From assembly GCA_963782615.1 (NCBI GenBank), contig CAWAKM010000007.1, forward strand, positions 1,432 to 65,431: a DNA stretch of 64,000 nucleotides, given 5' to 3'. Below the pieces are notes generated by a model that had not been told where the DNA came from, did not search any database, and saw only the letters and a list, made by a program, of their open reading frames with translations. The first letter of the stretch is position 1, and every line of letters begins with the position of its first letter. This DNA comes from an uncultured Thermoleophilia bacterium. Its GTDB lineage: Bacteria; Actinomycetota; Thermoleophilia; Gaiellales; Gaiellaceae. Of this stretch, positions 3-10,875 are shown in pieces. A program made the position numbers and the translations under genes.

Positions 3-182
3 TGCGCCGGGCTGTCTAATCGTGAGATCGCTAGCAAACTCTTTATAAGTGAGGCGACCGTCAAGGTTCACGTTCATCACATGTTTGACAAGGTTGGCAT
101 CCGGTCCCGAACAGCACTAGCCATGAACGCTGTCCATGAACGGATCCGTCAAGCCACATCGACCATGGACGGAGAGGAGTGA
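3..182 (+). CDS. LuxR/NarL-family regulator, C-terminal HTH (5'-partial, runs off the window start)
   Basis: Manual translation from nt 3: CAGLSNREIASKLFISEATVKVHVHHMFDKVGIRSRTALAM...EE*, a canonical LuxR HTH; not in the ORF track. Confidence 0.85.
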   Translation, partial: CAGLSNREIASKLFISEATVKVHVHHMFDKVGIRSRTALAMNAVHERIRQATSTMDGEE

Positions 183-1579
183 GCAAGTGCCCTGAGTTCA
201 GCCACGCTAATCGGGTGGAAGTCTTCTCTCTTCGCAGTCCTGTACTCCTCCGCCGCACCGGCAAGCAGAGCTTCGAACGCCGCAACAACCGAGGTGTCGA
301 ACTGGCTCTCGACCGCCTGGGCCAATCGGAGACGGGCGACCCGGCTCGGCATGGCATCGCGGTAAGGTCTATCTGAAGTCATCGCGTTGTAGGCGTCTGC
401 CACCGCGATTATCTTTGAGAGTGGAGGGATCAACTCCCCCGGAATGCGATCAGGATACCCTTCGCCGTCGATACGTTCGTGGTGGTGTCGGACGATGAGG
501 GCCACGTCCGCGTATGTCTCGACTCGTTCCAAGATGCTCTCGCCGATCTCGGAGTGGCGTTGCATTTCCCTGCGCTCCTCGAGAGTCAAAGGGCCGTTCT
601 TCAGCAGAAGGCTCGCGGGAAGACCCACCTTTCCGATGTCGTGTACCAAGCCGCAAAGATAGGCGCGTTCCTGCGTCTCAAGAGGCAAGCCCATCCGCTC
701 GCTGATGTCTCGAGAGTAGATTGCAACAGCTTTCGAGTGGCCGGCTGTGTAGAGGTCACTTTGCTCCAAGGTTGCCACCAGGGCCTCTGCAAATTCAAGA
801 TTTGATCGGTTCAAACGCTCGTTGGCGCCCTTTAGATCGAAGGCGAGGGTTCGCTGCTGCAGGTACATCGCAAACAGTCGTTGCGCCGCAAGAGCGGGCG
901 CGATGAAGAGGGGCGCGGTCCACGGCGAGACCTCCGTGTATGCGAGCGTCAGCAGAGCAACAACTGGCGCGTAGACGCACACGGCAGTTGCCAAGAGAGG
1001 CGCGAGAGTACGAGCCGAGAACGACCTTTTGTTCCCGCGTAGCCGCGAGGTGACCATCGCGAAGACAAGTTCAAGTGACTCTCCAGCGATCGAGCCGACG
1101 AGGGTCGCCAGAATCACGCCCCCCGTCCCGTCCGGCCCCCTCGAAAGCATCGCCATGGCAACACCGCCGGTCACGGCGCCCACGAGGAATCGACTGCTCG
1201 TGTAGGTCAGCCACTTCAATCGTGGCGACCTACCGGACGAACCTCGGTCAAGTAGCTCGCTATCGCCGAGCTCTGACGCAGCACCGACGATCCCGCCGGC
1301 CAGAGGCCCGAACAAGACGGCCGCGAAGAGCATCAAGACGGGTGAGATCGAGAGTTCCGTCGTGTCTGTAAATCGGACGCTGCCGCGCTCAGCGATCGCG
1401 GCGGCGAGCGCAAGGATCAAAACGATCCAAATGTTCCCTATTGGTTGACCTACTAGCACCAAGACTCCGGCAGTTCCCAACGCGATCGCCGTCAACACGG
1501 CGACGTAGAGATGAAGTGGGCCGAACCGATCTCCGAGTACGGCCCTTGCGTTATCCCTCGAATGGGGTATACGATTCAT
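149..1579 (-). CDS. Membrane-anchored HD-GYP phosphodiesterase (multi-TM N-terminus)
   Basis: TAGHS, HDIGK, HHERIDGEGYP, VADAYNAMTSDRPYR motifs; hydrophobic N-terminal ~240 aa; exact start uncertain. Confidence 0.9.
   Translation of the reverse strand: MNRIPHSRDNARAVLGDRFGPLHLYVAVLTAIALGTAGVLVLVGQPIGNIWIVLILALAAAIAERGSVRFTDTTELSISPVLMLFAAVLFGPLAGGIVGAASELGDSELLDRGSSGRSPRLKWLTYTSSRFLVGAVTGGVAMAMLSRGPDGTGGVILATLVGSIAGESLELVFAMVTSRLRGNKRSFSARTLAPLLATAVCVYAPVVALLTLAYTEVSPWTAPLFIAPALAAQRLFAMYLQQRTLAFDLKGANERLNRSNLEFAEALVATLEQSDLYTAGHSKAVAIYSRDISERMGLPLETQERAYLCGLVHDIGKVGLPASLLLKNGPLTLEERREMQRHSEIGESILERVETYADVALIVRHHHERIDGEGYPDRIPGELIPPLSKIIAVADAYNAMTSDRPYRDAMPSRVARLRLAQAVESQFDTSVVAAFEALLAGAAEEYRTAKREDFHPISVAELRALAHSSPSMVDVA
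1546..1575 (+). promoter_or_regulatory. Putative sigma-70 promoter for the small peptide gene
   Basis: TTGCGT (1546-1551) N18 TACGAT (1570-1575). Confidence 0.45.
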
Positions 1580-1613
1580 TTGCCGTTAGTCCTCAAATAC
1601 AAGGAGTAGGTCG

Positions 1614-1676
1614 ATGCGGAAAGCATTTCGTGTCGTCCTTTTCGCCGCCATGTCTGCGGGCGTCAAGGACTGGTAG
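1614..1676 (+). CDS. Small 20-aa peptide MRKAFRVVLFAAMSAGVKDW
   Basis: AAGGAG RBS at 1601-1606, 7 nt before ATG; basic-hydrophobic-GxxW layout; below the ORF-track cutoff. Confidence 0.65.
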   Translation: MRKAFRVVLFAAMSAGVKDW

Positions 1677-1760
1677 CCGTCAGATCCTGAGTTCAACGCC
1701 CCTGGTGGGCATCCCTCTATAGGGGGATCCTCCAGATGCTGCGAGGTCAGGATCCGACGG
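1677..1760. terminator. Long stem-loop between the peptide gene and the convergent LuxR gene
   Basis: CCGTCAGATCCTGA (1677-1690) / TCAGGATCCGACGG (1747-1760), 13/14 complementary; starts right after the TAG. Confidence 0.45.
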
Positions 1761-1782
1761 TCTACCCCAACAGAACCAAGCG

Positions 1783-2118
1783 TCAAGCAATGAGCCCACG
1801 CCGATAGCCCACAGCTACGGCGTGGGCTCTACTGCGTGCTTGAAGCTTCGCGAGTAGATGCCGCACATGAGACTTCACCGTCTCCTCCGAGAGGAACAGG
1901 CGCTGGCCGATCTCGCGGTTCACGAGGCCGTCTGCGACAAGCTGCAGTACCTCGATTTCTCGTGCCGTCGGCTCCTGCGCGAGCTCGCGCAAGGCCGGTG
2001 GGTTGAATGCGATCACGGCGCCCGAACGGCTCGTGCTACGCCGGGCCGCAGCTGCCTCGAACCGGCGACTGTGGTCGCGGTACCGGCTCAGAATCTCCTT
2101 GCGCTCTGCGGCATCCAT
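1783..2118 (-). CDS. LuxR-family HTH regulator with short N-terminus, no receiver domain
   Basis: PTAREIEVLQLVADGLVNREIGQRLFLSEETVKSHVRHLLAKL; start placed at the MDAAERK ATG (2118). Confidence 0.85.
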   Translation of the reverse strand: MDAAERKEILSRYRDHSRRFEAAAARRSTSRSGAVIAFNPPALRELAQEPTAREIEVLQLVADGLVNREIGQRLFLSEETVKSHVRHLLAKLQARSRAHAVAVGYRRGLIA

Positions 2119-2277: not shown

Positions 2278-3378
2278 CTAGGCCGCGAGCGAGGCGAGTT
2301 CGCGGAGGGCTGCCAGCCGTGAAAGCGCCTGGCCCTCGAGCTGTCGGACCCGCTCGCGGGTCAGATCCAGTTCGTGGCCGATCGCCTCGAGCGTCCACGG
2401 CTCGCCCTCGAATCCGAACCGCAGCTCGAGAATCCGGCGTTCCCGCTCGGGCAGCGCATCGAGTGCCCGCCTGACGCCCTGGCGTCGCAAGGACTCCTCG
2501 GCCTCCTCGAACGGATCGGCTGCCTCACGATCGGCGAACAGATCGCCCAGTTCACCTTCGTCGTCCGCGCCGACGGTCTGGTTCAACGAAACGGACGCGT
2601 GCGCGGCGCCGAGCGCTTCGTCGACATGCTGGATCGGAAGGCCTGTTGCGTCGGCGAGCTCCTGCTTGGTTGCCTCGCGCCCGAGTTCGACCTCGAGCCG
2701 TCTGGCCGCGCGCGACAACTTCTGCTGTCGCTCCACGACATGAACCGGCACCCGGATCGTGCGGGCATGGTTTGCGACGGCACGCTGGACCGACTGCCGG
2801 ATCCACCAGGTCGCATACGTCGAGAACTTGAATCCGCGGCGCCAGTCGAACTTCTCGACCGCACGGTTGAGGCCGAGCGTTCCCTCTTGGATCAGGTCGA
2901 GGAACGGCACTCCCAGCCCGCGGTAACCCTTCGCGATCGACACCACGAGGCGAAGGTTCGACTCGATCATTCGGCGCTTCGCGACTGGGTCACCTCGCTC
3001 TATGCGCTTCGCGAGGGTCACCTCGTCGGCGGCCGTCAACAGCTTGTGGCGACCGACGTCCGCCAGGAACAGCTGCAGCGAATCCGCAGCGCCCGAAAGT
3101 GACTCGGCCGCCCAGACGGCGGCTTCCGCCTCCTCCTTCTTGCGCTCCGCGTCCGCCAACTGCTTCTTCGCGTCCGCGTCCGCCTGCGGTTGCCCGACCT
3201 CGAGGCCGATGGTCTCGAGCTCGCGCGTGACCTGCTCCGCTTCCTCGTCGTTCAGCTCGTGCTCGAGAACGAACGCCTCGAGCTCGATCGGCTCCACCCA
3301 GCCGCGCTCCTCCGAGCGCTCGATCAGACCCTTGATCTGATCGGATTCGAACAGTTCTGTCAGCTGGTTCTGCGTCAA
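2278..3378 (-). CDS. Sigma-70 family factor, RpoD/SigA-like with region 1.1
   Basis: [51 protein letters not shown]; no adjacent dnaG, so possibly a paralog. Confidence 0.92.
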
Positions 3379-3605: not shown

Positions 3606-6179
3606 TCAGCGCTTACCGGCGACGCGACGTGTCTTCTTCGGCGTGGGCCCCTTGGCCCGCCGCTCAGCCAACAGCTCGAGCGCCCGGTCCATCGTGAGGC
3701 CCTCGGCGTCGTCCCCGCGACGCAGACTGGCGTTCGTCTCACCATCCGTCACATACGGCCCGAATCGACCGTCCTTGACGACGATGGGTCTCCCCGACAT
3801 CGGGTCCGGGCCGAGGTCCTTCAACGGCGGCTTCGCCTGCCCCCTGCCCCGCCGCTCCTTCGGCTGTGCGAGCAACGCGACCGCTTCGTCGGCCGTGACG
3901 GTGAAGAGCTGCTCCTCGTCCGCGAGCGAGCGAGTCTCGGCGCCTTTCTTGATATACGGGCCATATCGTCCGTTTGCGACGTGGATCTCCTCGCCGTCCG
4001 GCGTGTTCAACGTCCGGGGCAGCGAGAGCAGCCGCAGGGCGTCCTCGAGCGTCACCGTCTCGAGCGACATCGTCTTGAAGAGCGAGCCCGTGCGGGGCTT
4101 TTCGTCCGAGCCCTCGTCCAGCACCTCGCTGACGTACGGGCCGTAGCGCCCCGCGCGCGCAACGACCTGACGGCCTGATACGGGATCGACCCCGAGGTCA
4201 CGGTCGCCCGACGGCGTGGCGAGCAACTCCTCCGCCTTCTCACGGGTCAGCTCATCCGGTGCCATGTCGTCGGGAACGCTCGCGCGTTCCTCGCCGCGCT
4301 GCAGGTACGGCCCATACCGACCGACCCGCAGCACGATCCCCTCCGCGCCTGGGATCTCGATCGAATTCACGTCACGCGCGTCGATCGCATCGAGATGGTC
4401 GGTGACGAGTGCATGCAGCCCTTCCTCGCCTTCCGTCCCCCGGTAGAAGCGGCTCAACCAGTCGACCCTGTTCTCGTCACCCTGCGCGATCCGATCGAGA
4501 TCGTCCTCCAACCGAGCGGTGAAGTCGTAGTCGACCAGGCGCTCGAAATGCTTCTCGAGCAGCTTCGTGACCGAGAACGCGAGGAATGTCGGCACCAGAG
4601 CGGTGCCCTTCTTGAAGACGTAGCCGCGCTCGAGGATCGTCCCCATGATCGACGCGTACGTCGACGGTCTCCCAATGCCCCGATCCTCGAGCGCCTTTAC
4701 GAGGGATGCCTCCGTGTAACGGGCGGGCGGGGAGGTGGAATGGCCGTCGGGCTCGAGCATCGAGGGCTCGACCTGTTCGCCGACCTGGAGCGGGGGTAGC
4801 CGGCGCTCGTCGTCGCCGTTGCGCGACTCGTCGTCCCGGCTCTCCTCGTACGCGGCGAGGAAGCCCCTGAACGTGATCACGGTGCCCGACGCGCCGAACT
4901 CGGCGTCGCGCCCGTCCGACGCAGCCGCACCGAGTCGTAGCGAGACGGTCTGCCCGCGTGCGTCCTCCATCTGTGAGGCGACCGTTCGTTTCCAGACGAG
5001 TTCGTACAGCGCATGCTCGTCGCGGGACAGCTCACGTTCCACCTCGGGCGGAGTGCGGAATGCGTCTCCGGCGGGACGAATCGCCTCGTGCGCCTCTTGG
5101 GCGTTCTTCACCTTGCGCTCGTAGTGGCGCGGTGCGGCAGGGACGAACTCCGCTCCGTACAACTGTGCCGCTTGCACACGCGCCGCCGTCAGCGCCGACT
5201 CCGAGAGCGTCGTCGAGTCGGTTCGCATATAGGTGATGTATCCGTTTTCGTACAGGCGTTGTGCTACCCGCATCGTCGTCTGTGACGAGAACCGCAGCTT
5301 CCGACTTGCTTCCTGTTGCAGTGTCGACGTCATGAACGGAGCCGCCGGGCGCCGAGTGTACGGCTTCTCCTCCACCGACCGCACCGCGAACGGCGCGCCG
5401 TCGAGCGCGGTTGCGAGCGTGCGCGCGGCGTCTTCGTCGAGTGCCAGGATGTCGGACTTGAGACGGCCGTCGTCGCCAAAGTCACGGCCTTGTGCGACGC
5501 GCCGATCGTCGACGGCGACGAGTCTCGCCTCGAACGCGCCCGGGTCGAACGTGCCAACAATGTCCCAGTAGGCGGCCGGCACGAACAGCATTCGCTCCCG
5601 TTCCCGCTCGACCACGAGCCGTGTCGCAACCGACTGGACGCGACCCGCTGAAAGCCCCTGCATCACCTTCTTCCACAGGACGGGCGACACCTCATATCCG
5701 TAGAGGCGGTCGAGGATCCTCCGGGTTTCCTGTGCGTCGACCAGGCGCTCGTCGATCTCGCGGGTCTCGCCAAGGGCGCGCTCGATCGCCTCACGCGTGA
5801 TCTCGTGGAACACCATGCGCCTGACAGGCACCTTCGGCTTCAGCACTTCGAGCAGATGCCAGGCGATGGCCTCCCCCTCGCGATCCTCGTCGGTCGCGAG
5901 CAGGAGCTCGGTCGCGCCCTTCAGCTCGCGCTTCAGCTGTTCGACCTTTTTCTTCTTGTCCGGATCGACCACATACAACGGTTGGAACTGGTCATCGACG
6001 TTGACGCCGAGCCGCGCCCACTGTTCCTTTTTCGCTGCAGCAGGAATATCGGCGGCGCGGTTCGGAAGATCGCGAATGTGGCCGATCGAGGACTCGACCA
6101 CGTAGCCGTCGCCGAGATACCCGGCAATGGTCTTTGCCTTGGCGGGAGACTCGACGATCACGAGACGACGTTCGGCCAC
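3606..6179 (-). CDS. topA: DNA topoisomerase I with actinobacterial C-terminal repeats
   Basis: LVIVESPAKAKTI, ATDEDREGEAIAWH, SAGRVQS, GYITYMRTDS, GRYGPY repeats; GTG start at 6179. Confidence 0.97.
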   Translation of the reverse strand: MAERRLVIVESPAKAKTIAGYLGDGYVVESSIGHIRDLPNRAADIPAAAKKEQWARLGVNVDDQFQPLYVVDPDKKKKVEQLKRELKGATELLLATDEDREGEAIAWHLLEVLKPKVPVRRMVFHEITREAIERALGETREIDERLVDAQETRRILDRLYGYEVSPVLWKKVMQGLSAGRVQSVATRLVVERERERMLFVPAAYWDIVGTFDPGAFEARLVAVDDRRVAQGRDFGDDGRLKSDILALDEDAARTLATALDGAPFAVRSVEEKPYTRRPAAPFMTSTLQQEASRKLRFSSQTTMRVAQRLYENGYITYMRTDSTTLSESALTAARVQAAQLYGAEFVPAAPRHYERKVKNAQEAHEAIRPAGDAFRTPPEVERELSRDEHALYELVWKRTVASQMEDARGQTVSLRLGAAASDGRDAEFGASGTVITFRGFLAAYEESRDDESRNGDDERRLPPLQVGEQVEPSMLEPDGHSTSPPARYTEASLVKALEDRGIGRPSTYASIMGTILERGYVFKKGTALVPTFLAFSVTKLLEKHFERLVDYDFTARLEDDLDRIAQGDENRVDWLSRFYRGTEGEEGLHALVTDHLDAIDARDVNSIEIPGAEGIVLRVGRYGPYLQRGEERASVPDDMAPDELTREKAEELLATPSGDRDLGVDPVSGRQVVARAGRYGPYVSEVLDEGSDEKPRTGSLFKTMSLETVTLEDALRLLSLPRTLNTPDGEEIHVANGRYGPYIKKGAETRSLADEEQLFTVTADEAVALLAQPKERRGRGQAKPPLKDLGPDPMSGRPIVVKDGRFGPYVTDGETNASLRRGDDAEGLTMDRALELLAERRAKGPTPKKTRRVAGKR

Positions 6180-6299
6180 GGGTGCCCTTTTCGGGTTGGG
6201 TGACGGGATCCTCCCCGGCCGACGGCCGGGTGCGCGGGTCACCATAGCGGTGGCGTGTCCCACCGCAAGTGTCCCGAACGGGCGATACTGGAACCGCCG

Positions 6300-9498: not shown

Positions 9499-10875
9499 GT
9501 GAAAGCTCGCCCGTCGGAGAGGTACCGCCCGTGGCTGATCGGCGAGCTGGTACTCGTCTGCTTGCTCGCCCTTGGCACAGTGCTGCTGGCAGTGACAGGT
9601 CGTCTCGACGGCTACGAGCTCCCCAACGCGCGTATCGCGCTCGACACCGCCGTTGCGGTCGTCGCTTCGATCGTTGCGATTCTCGCCGCGATCAGATTCC
9701 TCGTCGAGGGTCGGGGTATGGATCTTCTGCTTGCGGGAGGATTCCTGGCGATCGGTGTCGGGACATTCGCGTTCGCAGTCGTCTCCGTGCTGTCGGGCGG
9801 TGAGCTGGGACCCGTGGAAGGCTGGGCGGCGATCGGCGCCAGTCTCTTCGGGGCGATGCTGATCGCGATCGCGCCATTCGTCGGCCGACGGACAATCAGG
9901 CGCCGCCGAGCCCTTGTTGCAACCACTGTTCTCATCGCCGTCTGCCTCCTCGGGATCTGGTTCGACGCCCGTTACCTGCGACACGACCTCAGCACCGCCG
10001 GGCCCGACGGCACCCGCTCCCCGGCGGTGGTCGTCGCATATGGCCTCCTGACCATGCTCTCGCTCATCGCCGTCGTCGGCTTCGGCTTGCGCTACCGGCG
10101 CCACGGGCGCGACCTCGACAGCTGGCTGACGCTAGCCCTTACCCTCGTCGTGTTCGCCGACCTCCACTACGTGCTCGCTCCCGCCCGCTCGAGCGACTAT
10201 GTCCTCCAGAGTGACCTGCTCCGGATCCTTGCGTTCGCCGTGCTCCTCGTCGGCGTGTGGCGGGCGATCGGGCAGGCGGAATTCGGTCGGGCTGTTGCCG
10301 AGGAACGCGCTCGCGTCGCCCGTGACATCCACGATGGCCTGGCCCAGTACCTCTTCGCGCTCTCGGCGCAGGTCAGCATGCTCGAGTCCGGGGCGGAGCT
10401 CGCCCAAATCCTGCCGCGTCTCAAGCTCGCCACCACGGCCGCCCAGCAAGAGGCCCAGTTCGCGGTGCTCGCGCTCTCGTCGGCGGCAGGCTCAGCGCCG
10501 TTCGACGCCGCCTTGAGGCGCTACGTCGAATTCCTCGTCGCCGACGGTGCGCTCGACGTGGAGGTGGAGATCGACCCGGACGTGACGCTCGCGCCGGACG
10601 AGGAGATCGAGGTGTTCCGGATCGTCCAGGAGGGCCTCGCCAACGCGAGGAAGCACGCGGGGGCGCGCAATGCCGAGGTCTCCATCAACCAGCGGGGTGG
10701 GCGTCGCATCGTGCGGATCTCGGACGACGGCTCGGGGATCGAGACCGGCGATCCGGGTGCCGGACAGGGGATGAAGAACATGCGTTCGCGCGCCGCTTCG
10801 ATCCAGGGTGTCTTCTCCCTGAGATCTTCCCCCGGGAGAGGGACGTCGATCGAGGTCGTGTTGCGGCCCGTGTAG
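9499..10875 (+). CDS. Membrane sensor histidine kinase (HisKA_3), divergent from the response regulator
   Basis: About 7 TM segments, ERARVARDIHDG, FRIVQEGLANARKHA, DDGSG, GQGMKNM. Confidence 0.9.
   Translation: MKARPSERYRPWLIGELVLVCLLALGTVLLAVTGRLDGYELPNARIALDTAVAVVASIVAILAAIRFLVEGRGMDLLLAGGFLAIGVGTFAFAVVSVLSGGELGPVEGWAAIGASLFGAMLIAIAPFVGRRTIRRRRALVATTVLIAVCLLGIWFDARYLRHDLSTAGPDGTRSPAVVVAYGLLTMLSLIAVVGFGLRYRRHGRDLDSWLTLALTLVVFADLHYVLAPARSSDYVLQSDLLRILAFAVLLVGVWRAIGQAEFGRAVAEERARVARDIHDGLAQYLFALSAQVSMLESGAELAQILPRLKLATTAAQQEAQFAVLALSSAAGSAPFDAALRRYVEFLVADGALDVEVEIDPDVTLAPDEEIEVFRIVQEGLANARKHAGARNAEVSINQRGGRRIVRISDDGSGIETGDPGAGQGMKNMRSRAASIQGVFSLRSSPGRGTSIEVVLRPV

Follow-up and report, generated by a model that had tools for sequence, protein, structure and literature searches.

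The window analysed here is a stretch of 64,000 nucleotides of contig CAWAKM010000007.1 (assembly GCA_963782615.1) from an uncultured member of the Gaiellaceae (class Thermoleophilia), and its numbering is used throughout. It belongs to a metagenome-assembled genome (MAG) of 4.07 Mb, and its first two kilobases hold a group of regulatory genes around a very small open reading frame (sORF) at positions 1614..1676 of the plus strand. The sORF starts with ATG at 1614, comprises 20 codons and a TAG stop codon (1674-1676), and encodes MRKAFRVVLFAAMSAGVKDW. On one side lies the divergent gene of an HD-GYP phosphodiesterase with about seven transmembrane (TM) segments (149..1579, minus strand), whose start is 34 bp from the sORF ATG, and on the other the convergent gene of a LuxR/GerE-type regulator of 111 amino acids (aa) (1783..2118, minus strand). 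The C-terminal part of a second regulator, of the LAL/MalT type (3..182, plus strand), is convergent with the HD-GYP gene. Across the family, the sORF is conserved, evolves under purifying selection as a protein, holds a fixed position among these neighbours and is accompanied by an operator motif that it shares with other sites in the genome. No description of a LuxR/sORF/HD-GYP module was found in the literature searched.

Conservation and coding character of the small ORF

Loci for comparison were gathered from orthologs of the HD-GYP gene, from pattern hits and from loci anchored on the LuxR gene, which together gave 118 distinct loci from >20 genera, all within the Gaiellaceae. The compared genomes are mostly MAGs, many of them assembled from long reads and affected by indel errors. 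An intact sORF is found in 100 of the 118 loci, in the same place and orientation between the convergent gene of the 111-aa LuxR protein and the divergent gene of the 7-TM HD-GYP protein. The initial annotation, made from the window alone, had proposed a hidden peptide gene in a LuxR/HD-GYP module and had predicted that orthologous HD-GYP genes would be preceded by a comparable small ORF ending in G-x(1-3)-W and showing dN/dS<1. The conserved coding sORF and its fixed synteny clearly bear this out. Among 22 phylogenetically independent sORF pairs, the ratio of non-synonymous to synonymous change (pN/pS) is 0.36 in the frame of the ORF; the two frames shifted from it give 1.23 and 1.43. The purifying selection spans the entire peptide of 20-21 aa and not just its final residues. 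Five synonymous changes and not a single replacement separate the sORFs of two of the genomes (G021 and G233). A strict pattern consisting of the motif of the untranslated region (UTR), a start codon and GAN-TGG-TAR occurs in 19 of 401 genomes of the order, while its reversed control occurs in none.

The history of length changes at the locus points in the same direction. Older changes in sORF length are all in frame, with indels of 24-36 nt that keep the frame, while the non-coding spacings are all fixed, such that the distance between the two palindromes that flank the ORF (sites A and B, described below) falls into classes of about 123, 159 and 186 nt, corresponding to peptide classes of 8, 20 and 28 aa. 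Large indels are therefore tolerated only within the ORF and only in frame. The sORF is present in a single copy in its own genome. Taken on sequence evidence, it is very probably a protein-coding gene, and it appears to be a genuine translated micro-gene with its own promoter, ribosome-binding site and structured 3′ end.

The encoded peptides range from 8 to 29 aa and fall into classes of 8-10, 16-22 and 25-29 aa, whose universal features are confined to the C-terminus, G-x(1-2)-[KR]-x-W. For the 80 distinct sORF sequences that underlie the statistics on the peptide C-terminus and the stop codon, the final residue is W, with F in two of them; position -3 holds K (52 sequences) or R (22), specified by the unrelated codons AAG, AGG, CGA and AGA; position -2 is free but typical of the clade (D/E in the genus of the window, I/V in the genus with 8-aa peptides, small residues elsewhere); and a G lies at -5 or -6 from the peptide end. 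The forms of 25-29 aa have a basic N-terminus, a strongly hydrophobic core and an AxA-like site followed by G-x-x-[KR]-x-W, and despite their divergence they keep a hydrophobic helix free of Pro and Arg, as in MRSRIATLLLALASLAAISGNVKLW and MLHWQSRLLAVLATLASIAALAGSSRGW. Those of 16-22 aa, which include the window peptide, are basic and amphipathic, and the window peptide itself carries an Arg within a hydrophobic stretch of only 11 residues. One genus-level clade has peptides of 8-10 aa only, of the form M-x-[RK]-G-x-K-[IV]-W (e.g., MARGSKIW). A Trp-codon attenuator is unlikely, given a single Trp codon, no trp genes nearby and the replacement of W by F in two lineages.

Promoter, operator palindromes and RNA structure

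All elements by which the initial annotation had recognized an expression unit, namely the ORF, the AAGGAG ribosome-binding site, the TTGCGT-N18-TACGAT promoter and the long hairpin that follows the stop codon, are present and conserved well beyond chance. The promoter (1546..1575, plus strand) consists of a -35 element TTGCGT at 1546-1551, an 18-nt spacer and a -10 element TACGAT at 1570-1575; it did not appear in the list returned by a generic promoter scan, and a TTGnnn-N17/18-TAnnnT promoter is kept in 93 of 100 orthologous loci. Because the -10 element ends 6-7 nt ahead of a near-invariant motif that starts with GCCGTC (GCCGTCAG; GCCGTCAGTYCCC), GCCGTCAGTYCCC is probably the 5′ end of the RNA, and transcription of the sORF would start at about 1582. 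In the window, this 5′-terminal motif reads GCCGTTAGTCCTCAA (1582..1596, plus strand; family consensus GCCGTCAGTYCCCRA), and no other element of the locus is as conserved. It can pair with a CUGACGG arm at the 3′ end only in the 8-aa clade, and elsewhere pairing between the 5′ and 3′ ends is not significant, so that 3′-arm pairing was rejected as a general explanation for the conservation of the motif. The Shine-Dalgarno sequence AAGGAG (1601..1606, plus strand) stands 7 nt ahead of the ATG and is kept across the loci as (A/T)AGGAG or GAGGAG, mostly with a spacing of 6 nt.

Two copies of a palindrome with the consensus ATCCCYC-N4-GRGGGAT flank the sORF. Site A (ATCCCTCGAATGGGGTAT, 1553..1570) lies within the promoter spacer and is a probable transcription-factor operator, whereas site B (ATCCCTCTATAGGGGGAT, 1711..1728), the second copy of the operator motif, sits at the tip of the downstream stem-loop, 37 nt past the stop codon; in most clades the distance from stop to site B is 36-45 nt, about 39 nt. 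Among 58 full loci surveyed around the sORF, at least one site is present in 56 and both in 42, and 13 have a third copy 53-82 nt upstream of the start of the small LuxR gene; no further copy was found elsewhere in the approximately 250 kb of these loci. The T/C asymmetry of the palindrome switches strand between clades, site A precedes the inferred transcription start, and one copy occurs in another promoter region, before the LuxR gene. These observations favour a DNA operator to which a dimeric factor would bind, and they weaken the case for the palindromes being RNA hairpins of the sORF transcript. The 123-, 159- and 186-bp distances between sites A and B merely follow the length of the ORF, and DNA looping with a fixed helical phase between the sites was accordingly rejected.

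A relaxed form of the motif, ATC[CA]C[CT]C-N3-5-G[AG]G[GT][GT]AT, has 28 sites in the genome, often in tandem, against 3 in a reversed-genome control, which points to a regulon. Sites adjoin genes for a type IV pilin and a large pseudopilin of 602 aa (both N_methyl), a TadE-like gene and GGDEF-EAL genes; in the genome of the window (G000) they lie at C8:871643, C8:883239, C8:196868-196897, C2:213435 and window position 10827 (C7:12258). This distribution suggests a pilus and cyclic di-GMP (c-di-GMP) regulon of a global regulator. The palindrome-binding factor would most likely be the 111-aa LuxR protein encoded next to the sORF, which we regard as the candidate regulator because it is conserved in the family, is specific to it and sometimes has the palindrome in its own upstream region. 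A genome-wide repeat of the REP type was rejected both for the sORF, which is single-copy, and for the UTR motif, since CCGTCAGWTCC occurs at chance frequency.

The long stem-loop (1674..1766, plus strand; 93 nt) begins at the stop codon and has its arms at 1677-1690 and 1748-1761. Its folding energy of -50.9 kcal/mol corresponds to z -5.6 on the plus strand (z -4.55 on the minus strand), and none of 200 shuffled sequences folded as well. The conserved stem shows compensatory changes at 9 of 22 pairs and numerous U-G pairs, which on the opposite strand would read C-A, and the plus strand folds better than the minus strand in 68 of 84 loci, including 15 of 15 in the 8-aa clade. Both the strand preference and the U-G pairs indicate that the stem is a structure of the sORF transcript. 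As a correction to how the initial annotation had described the hairpin, this strong and conserved stem-loop has no U-tract and so is not a canonical intrinsic terminator: no T-run follows position 1761, and a terminator scan gave no listing there. The position of the stem relative to the ORF varies, in that it begins 9-16 nt past the stop in 24 of 100 loci and well past it in the long-form sequences inspected, and 27 more loci have no GCCGTC-like start by pattern. The 3′ arm has two possible pairing partners in the 8-aa clade, the 5′ end and the sequence after the stop, and the ribosome-binding site can be masked there. A known RNA family was rejected, as neither strand gave a match in Rfam: in Rfam 15 the best overlap with the sORF region of the window has E=3.8, and ten diverse loci had no match above the gathering score there.

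Regulatory neighbours

The HD-GYP protein (HD_5 2.7e-33, HD 1.8e-20) carries the motifs LVHDIGK and HHERIDGEGYP. Hydropathy indicates about seven hydrophobic segments joined by short loops in its N-terminal half, in agreement with the multi-TM N-terminus and the 34-bp divergent arrangement described in the initial annotation, and no ligand domain was recognized in this 7-TM input region. In the window genome, the sole in-frame start is the ATG at 1579, just downstream of the sORF -10 element and beside the inferred start site of the sORF transcript, while the HD-GYP gene of the relatives that were read starts on the other side of site A, past the -35 element or overlapping it. Judging from this layout, the HD-GYP mRNA would have to begin within or beyond the sORF region, antisense to the 5′ end of the sORF, or else be co-transcribed with the LuxR gene; nothing convincing was seen by eye as a minus-strand HD-GYP promoter.

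Regulators with LuxR-type helix-turn-helix domains had been noted on both sides of the pair, and GerE domains are indeed encoded at 3-182 and 1783-2118; the left one, however, is the C-terminus of a large LAL/MalT-type regulator. The small LuxR protein (Pfam GerE, 2.3e-18) has a reading frame that is open to 2247 (154 aa), and all orthologs start at the position of the ATG at 2118 (MDAAERKEIL...). An element resembling GATACGCA is conserved 4-7 nt upstream of this start, and because the distance is so short the LuxR mRNA may be leaderless. Orthologs (E<=1e-25), 72-98% identical across the family, were found in 49 of 53 of its genomes, and the remaining genomes sampled from the class had none. 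The LAL gene is truncated by the start of the contig, at least 475 aa being present (C7:186-1613); its 872-aa ortholog in genome G002 combines a Walker A motif (a weak AAA_22 match) with the GerE domain. In 73 loci it is syntenic with the HD-GYP gene and points towards it, and its sequence changes far more quickly than that of the small LuxR gene, with 33-75% identity within the genus.

The LuxR gene, sORF, HD-GYP gene and LAL gene are syntenic across >20 genera, and the pairing of HD-GYP and LuxR genes holds in nearly all loci. In two loci (L078 and L083), the HD-GYP gene has been lost together with the promoter and the 5′ half of the sORF. There the LAL gene abuts the locus, and what remains are the last sORF codons (...LKAW and ...LEAW), the stop codon and the 3′ hairpins, as would be expected of a deletion that had one of its ends within the sORF. 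The module has a core-genome setting directly downstream of a gene for an RpoD/SigA-like sigma factor (2278-3378, minus strand) and topA (3606-6263, minus strand), all on the same strand. One relative (L067) has a match to the EGFOA RNA of Rfam (RF02955) at 4701-4809 on the plus strand (60.7 bits, gathering score 37.7), about 1.9 kb beyond its LuxR gene (match 2501-2827) and unrelated to the sORF.

Candidate functions of the peptide and their meaning

We estimate a probability of roughly 55% that the peptide is the product that matters and that it acts in trans in a circuit of LuxR protein, HD-GYP protein and LAL regulator tied to pili and c-di-GMP. Its working part would be the free C-terminus, G-x(1-2)-[KR]-x-W-COOH, and the N-terminal part would be an optional, lineage-specific extension that is signal- or TM-like in the forms of 25-29 aa, basic and amphipathic in those of 16-22 aa, and absent in those of 8-10 aa. 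A dimeric transcription factor, most likely the small LuxR protein, would control the sORF through the palindromes in the promoter spacer and about 39 nt past the stop, while the peptide would be an effector of one of the three conserved neighbours, i.e., the 7-TM HD-GYP protein, the LAL regulator or the small LuxR protein. The alternation of conserved, free and conserved positions at the C-terminus fits recognition of a free C-terminus, a kind of peptide recognition found in PDZ domains and the carboxylate clamps of TPR proteins. Replacement of W by F argues against sensing via the Trp codon and would be conservative for a binding pocket, and the hydrophobic helix that the long forms have kept is not needed by a purely cis-acting leader. 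An action of the peptide itself is further favoured by the transcription-factor regulon, by the co-loss with HD-GYP in L078 and L083, and by the genes that follow: none lies downstream in the orientation of the sORF, and the convergent LuxR gene came next in every locus read.

Several observations weigh against such a role for the peptide. Conservation is higher in the 5′ motif GCCGTCAGTYCCC than in the peptide. Peptides of the 8-10 aa clade lack any segment suited to export or to a membrane. Frameshifts interrupt the sORF in about 10 of 110 loci (about 9%), one per locus and each a singleton, and per nucleotide this rate exceeds that of the HD-GYP gene (21 of 103 loci over 1.4 kb). The constraint on the sORF may be weaker than apparent, or the long-read MAGs may be error-prone; the breaks of the HD-GYP alignment across two or three frames in those 21 of 103 loci imply frequent indel errors or pseudogenes, and single frameshifts in this data set therefore need caution. 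The stop codon is TAG in 60 of the 80 sequences, TAA in 19 and TGA in one, that is, TAG or TAA in 79 of 80 against an expectation of 35%, as TGA ends 65% of the long ORFs of the genome, and the stem begins 0-2 nt past the stop in 42 of 100 loci. A bias toward stops of the release factor 1 (RF1) type, combined with a stem that abuts the stop, would be more readily explained by a coupling of termination to RNA folding than by a plain peptide gene.

These last features are at the heart of the main rival, a cis-acting leader, which we consider rather unlikely on balance. The nascent [KR]-x-W would modulate RF1-dependent termination at UAG or UAA, and the ribosome at the stop codon would cover the base of the stem and thereby set the folding of an RNA of about 190 nt; the outcome could be a change in the stability of this RNA, sequestration of the ribosome-binding site or read-through antisense to the LuxR or HD-GYP transcripts, with a released peptide that has no role. 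Such a leader would account for universal parts limited to the last residues and the type of stop, for an ORF length that ranges over 8-29 codons, for the fixed distance of about 39 nt from stop to site B, for a strand-specific structure with compensatory changes, and, in the 8-aa clade, for the alternative pairings of the 3′ arm and the maskable ribosome-binding site. There are also precedents: the termination-arrest peptides TnaC, SpeFL, MsrDL and PepNL are very short, with conserved residues beside a release-factor-dependent stop and an RNA structure right after the ORF, and Trp-tRNA reads through UGA only (PMC11890864). These peptides differ from the sORF in controlling a downstream gene in the same orientation, of which none was found at this locus. 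A purely cis-acting leader would, moreover, leave the conserved hydrophobic helices of the long forms without a role and the purifying selection along the whole 20-21 aa peptide unaccounted for, the stem lies 9-16 nt past the stop in 24 of 100 loci and well past it in the long forms inspected, and the alternative pairing of 5′ and 3′ ends is significant in one clade only.

A more specific model, and a sub-case of the trans-acting peptide, is the secreted signal that the initial annotation had proposed: the peptide would be exported, cut to a C-terminal 5-6-mer and perceived extracellularly by the 7-TM domain of the HD-GYP protein, linking cell density to c-di-GMP hydrolysis. We regard this model as doubtful. 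The long and middle forms do resemble precursors of the SHP and PrgQ type, G-x-x-[KR]-x-W being preceded by an AxA-like site, the residue at -2 depends on the clade (D/E, I/V or small), and the sORF is strictly adjacent to an HD-GYP gene whose 7-TM input domain is free of a recognized ligand domain, and is lost with it. The forms of 8-10 aa, however, cannot take the signal-peptide route, so that a single route of secretion cannot cover the entire family; the loops of the HD-GYP protein are short and form no periplasmic domain, the window peptide has its Arg inside the 11-residue hydrophobic stretch, the LAL regulator and the small LuxR gene are equally linked to the sORF, the body of the peptide is less strictly conserved than the non-coding elements around it and the TAG/TAA stop, and the classes of peptide follow the clades. 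The absence of any visible transporter or processing enzyme from the window would not be strong counter-evidence by analogy, given that SHP and ComS rely on exporters encoded away from their peptide genes.

A type I toxin-like or small membrane-protein gene, whose structured mRNA would be silenced by pairing of its 5′ and 3′ ends and by antisense transcription from the LuxR/HD-GYP strand, is quite improbable. It could draw on the single-helix forms of 25-29 aa with a basic N-terminus, on the strongly structured mRNA with possible masking of the ribosome-binding site and 5′-3′ pairing, and on the full overlap of the sORF by the gene pair on the opposite strand, but the sORF, unlike type I toxin genes, which are often multi-copy or mobile, is single-copy in a fixed core-genome position throughout the family, many of its forms have an Arg in the helix or are merely 8 aa long, and the conserved part is the polar C-terminus and not the helix. 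The least probable explanation, that DNA operators and an RNA terminator between convergent genes are conserved around an incidental open frame, would suit the better conservation of the non-coding motifs and the roughly 9% of frameshifted loci, but it is at odds with a pN/pS of 0.36 in frame against >1.2 in the other frames, the retention of start codon, ribosome-binding site and stop, the 24-36 nt indels that keep the frame, and a basic -3 residue that derives from unrelated codons.

The peptide-product and termination-coupled readings are not exclusive and can coexist. Reportedly, the heptapeptide gene mccA is a case in which a hairpin and ribosome occupancy control the gene's own mRNA. As a tentative proposal, the sORF could encode a micro-peptide of a kind not described before (8-29 aa, G-x-[KR]-x-W-COOH, an octapeptide in one genus) that serves as a diffusible or intracellular ligand of the HD-GYP/LuxR/LAL circuit, with termination-coupled control of its own mRNA. 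Like the sORF, mccA, which encodes the heptapeptide precursor of microcin C, is among the shortest of genes, varies in length, has an invariant C-terminal residue and carries a stable hairpin directly past the stop. It differs in that the invariant residue is Asn and not Trp, and the sORF has no MccB-type adenylyltransferase or maturation enzyme nearby, its neighbours being regulators and an HD-GYP gene.

By analogy, the closest counterparts of the locus in layout are shp/rgg and prgQ/prgX. In these systems and in comS/comR, as at the sORF, a tiny ORF of 17-25 aa lies beside the gene of a transcription factor; in prgQ/prgX of pCF10 the peptide gene is, moreover, convergent with that of the regulator, with operators at and beyond the promoter. 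Their peptides, whose exporters are encoded elsewhere, run from a basic N-terminus through a hydrophobic middle to a conserved C-terminal active part, an architecture that among the Gaiellaceae is shown by the forms of 25-29 aa, in part by those of 16-22 aa and not by those of 8-10 aa. They differ in belonging to the Firmicutes and in using a receptor of the RRNPP/TPR type, whereas the neighbours in the Gaiellaceae are a 111-aa LuxR protein, an LAL regulator and a 7-TM HD-GYP protein; in Pfam, the small LuxR protein has GerE only, and the LAL regulator has a weak AAA_22 match and GerE without a TPR match, in a search of sequence domains that did not cover the fold of its helical middle part. 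The sORF peptide is also unlike the SHP and PrgQ type in its cationic-aromatic C-terminus, [KR]-x-W, and its constrained stop codon. Small membrane proteins of the MgrB-PhoQ type offer a further comparison, since the forms of 25-29 aa could be single-pass helices beside a membrane signalling enzyme, but forms of 8-22 aa cannot span the membrane and the conserved part is the C-terminal tail. What would be new here is a regulator-linked micro-peptide gene with an unusual signature of C-terminus and stop codon and with new partners.

The Gaiellaceae are abundant soil Actinomycetota that are known almost solely from MAGs, and we know of no work on signalling in this family. At 8-29 codons, the sORF is invisible to standard gene callers, yet it is among the best-conserved features of the module. 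If it acts as a termination-coupled leader, [KR]-x-W before an RF1 stop would represent a novel arrest motif that works without a downstream gene; to our knowledge, no termination-arrest leader peptide ends in [KR]-x-W or favours RF1 stops in a genome rich in TGA stops. Should the peptide be an effector, it would be the first peptide input to an HD-GYP/c-di-GMP circuit and a rare peptide signal in the phylum, and as a ligand it would tie peptide signalling in these bacteria to c-di-GMP turnover and pilus expression.

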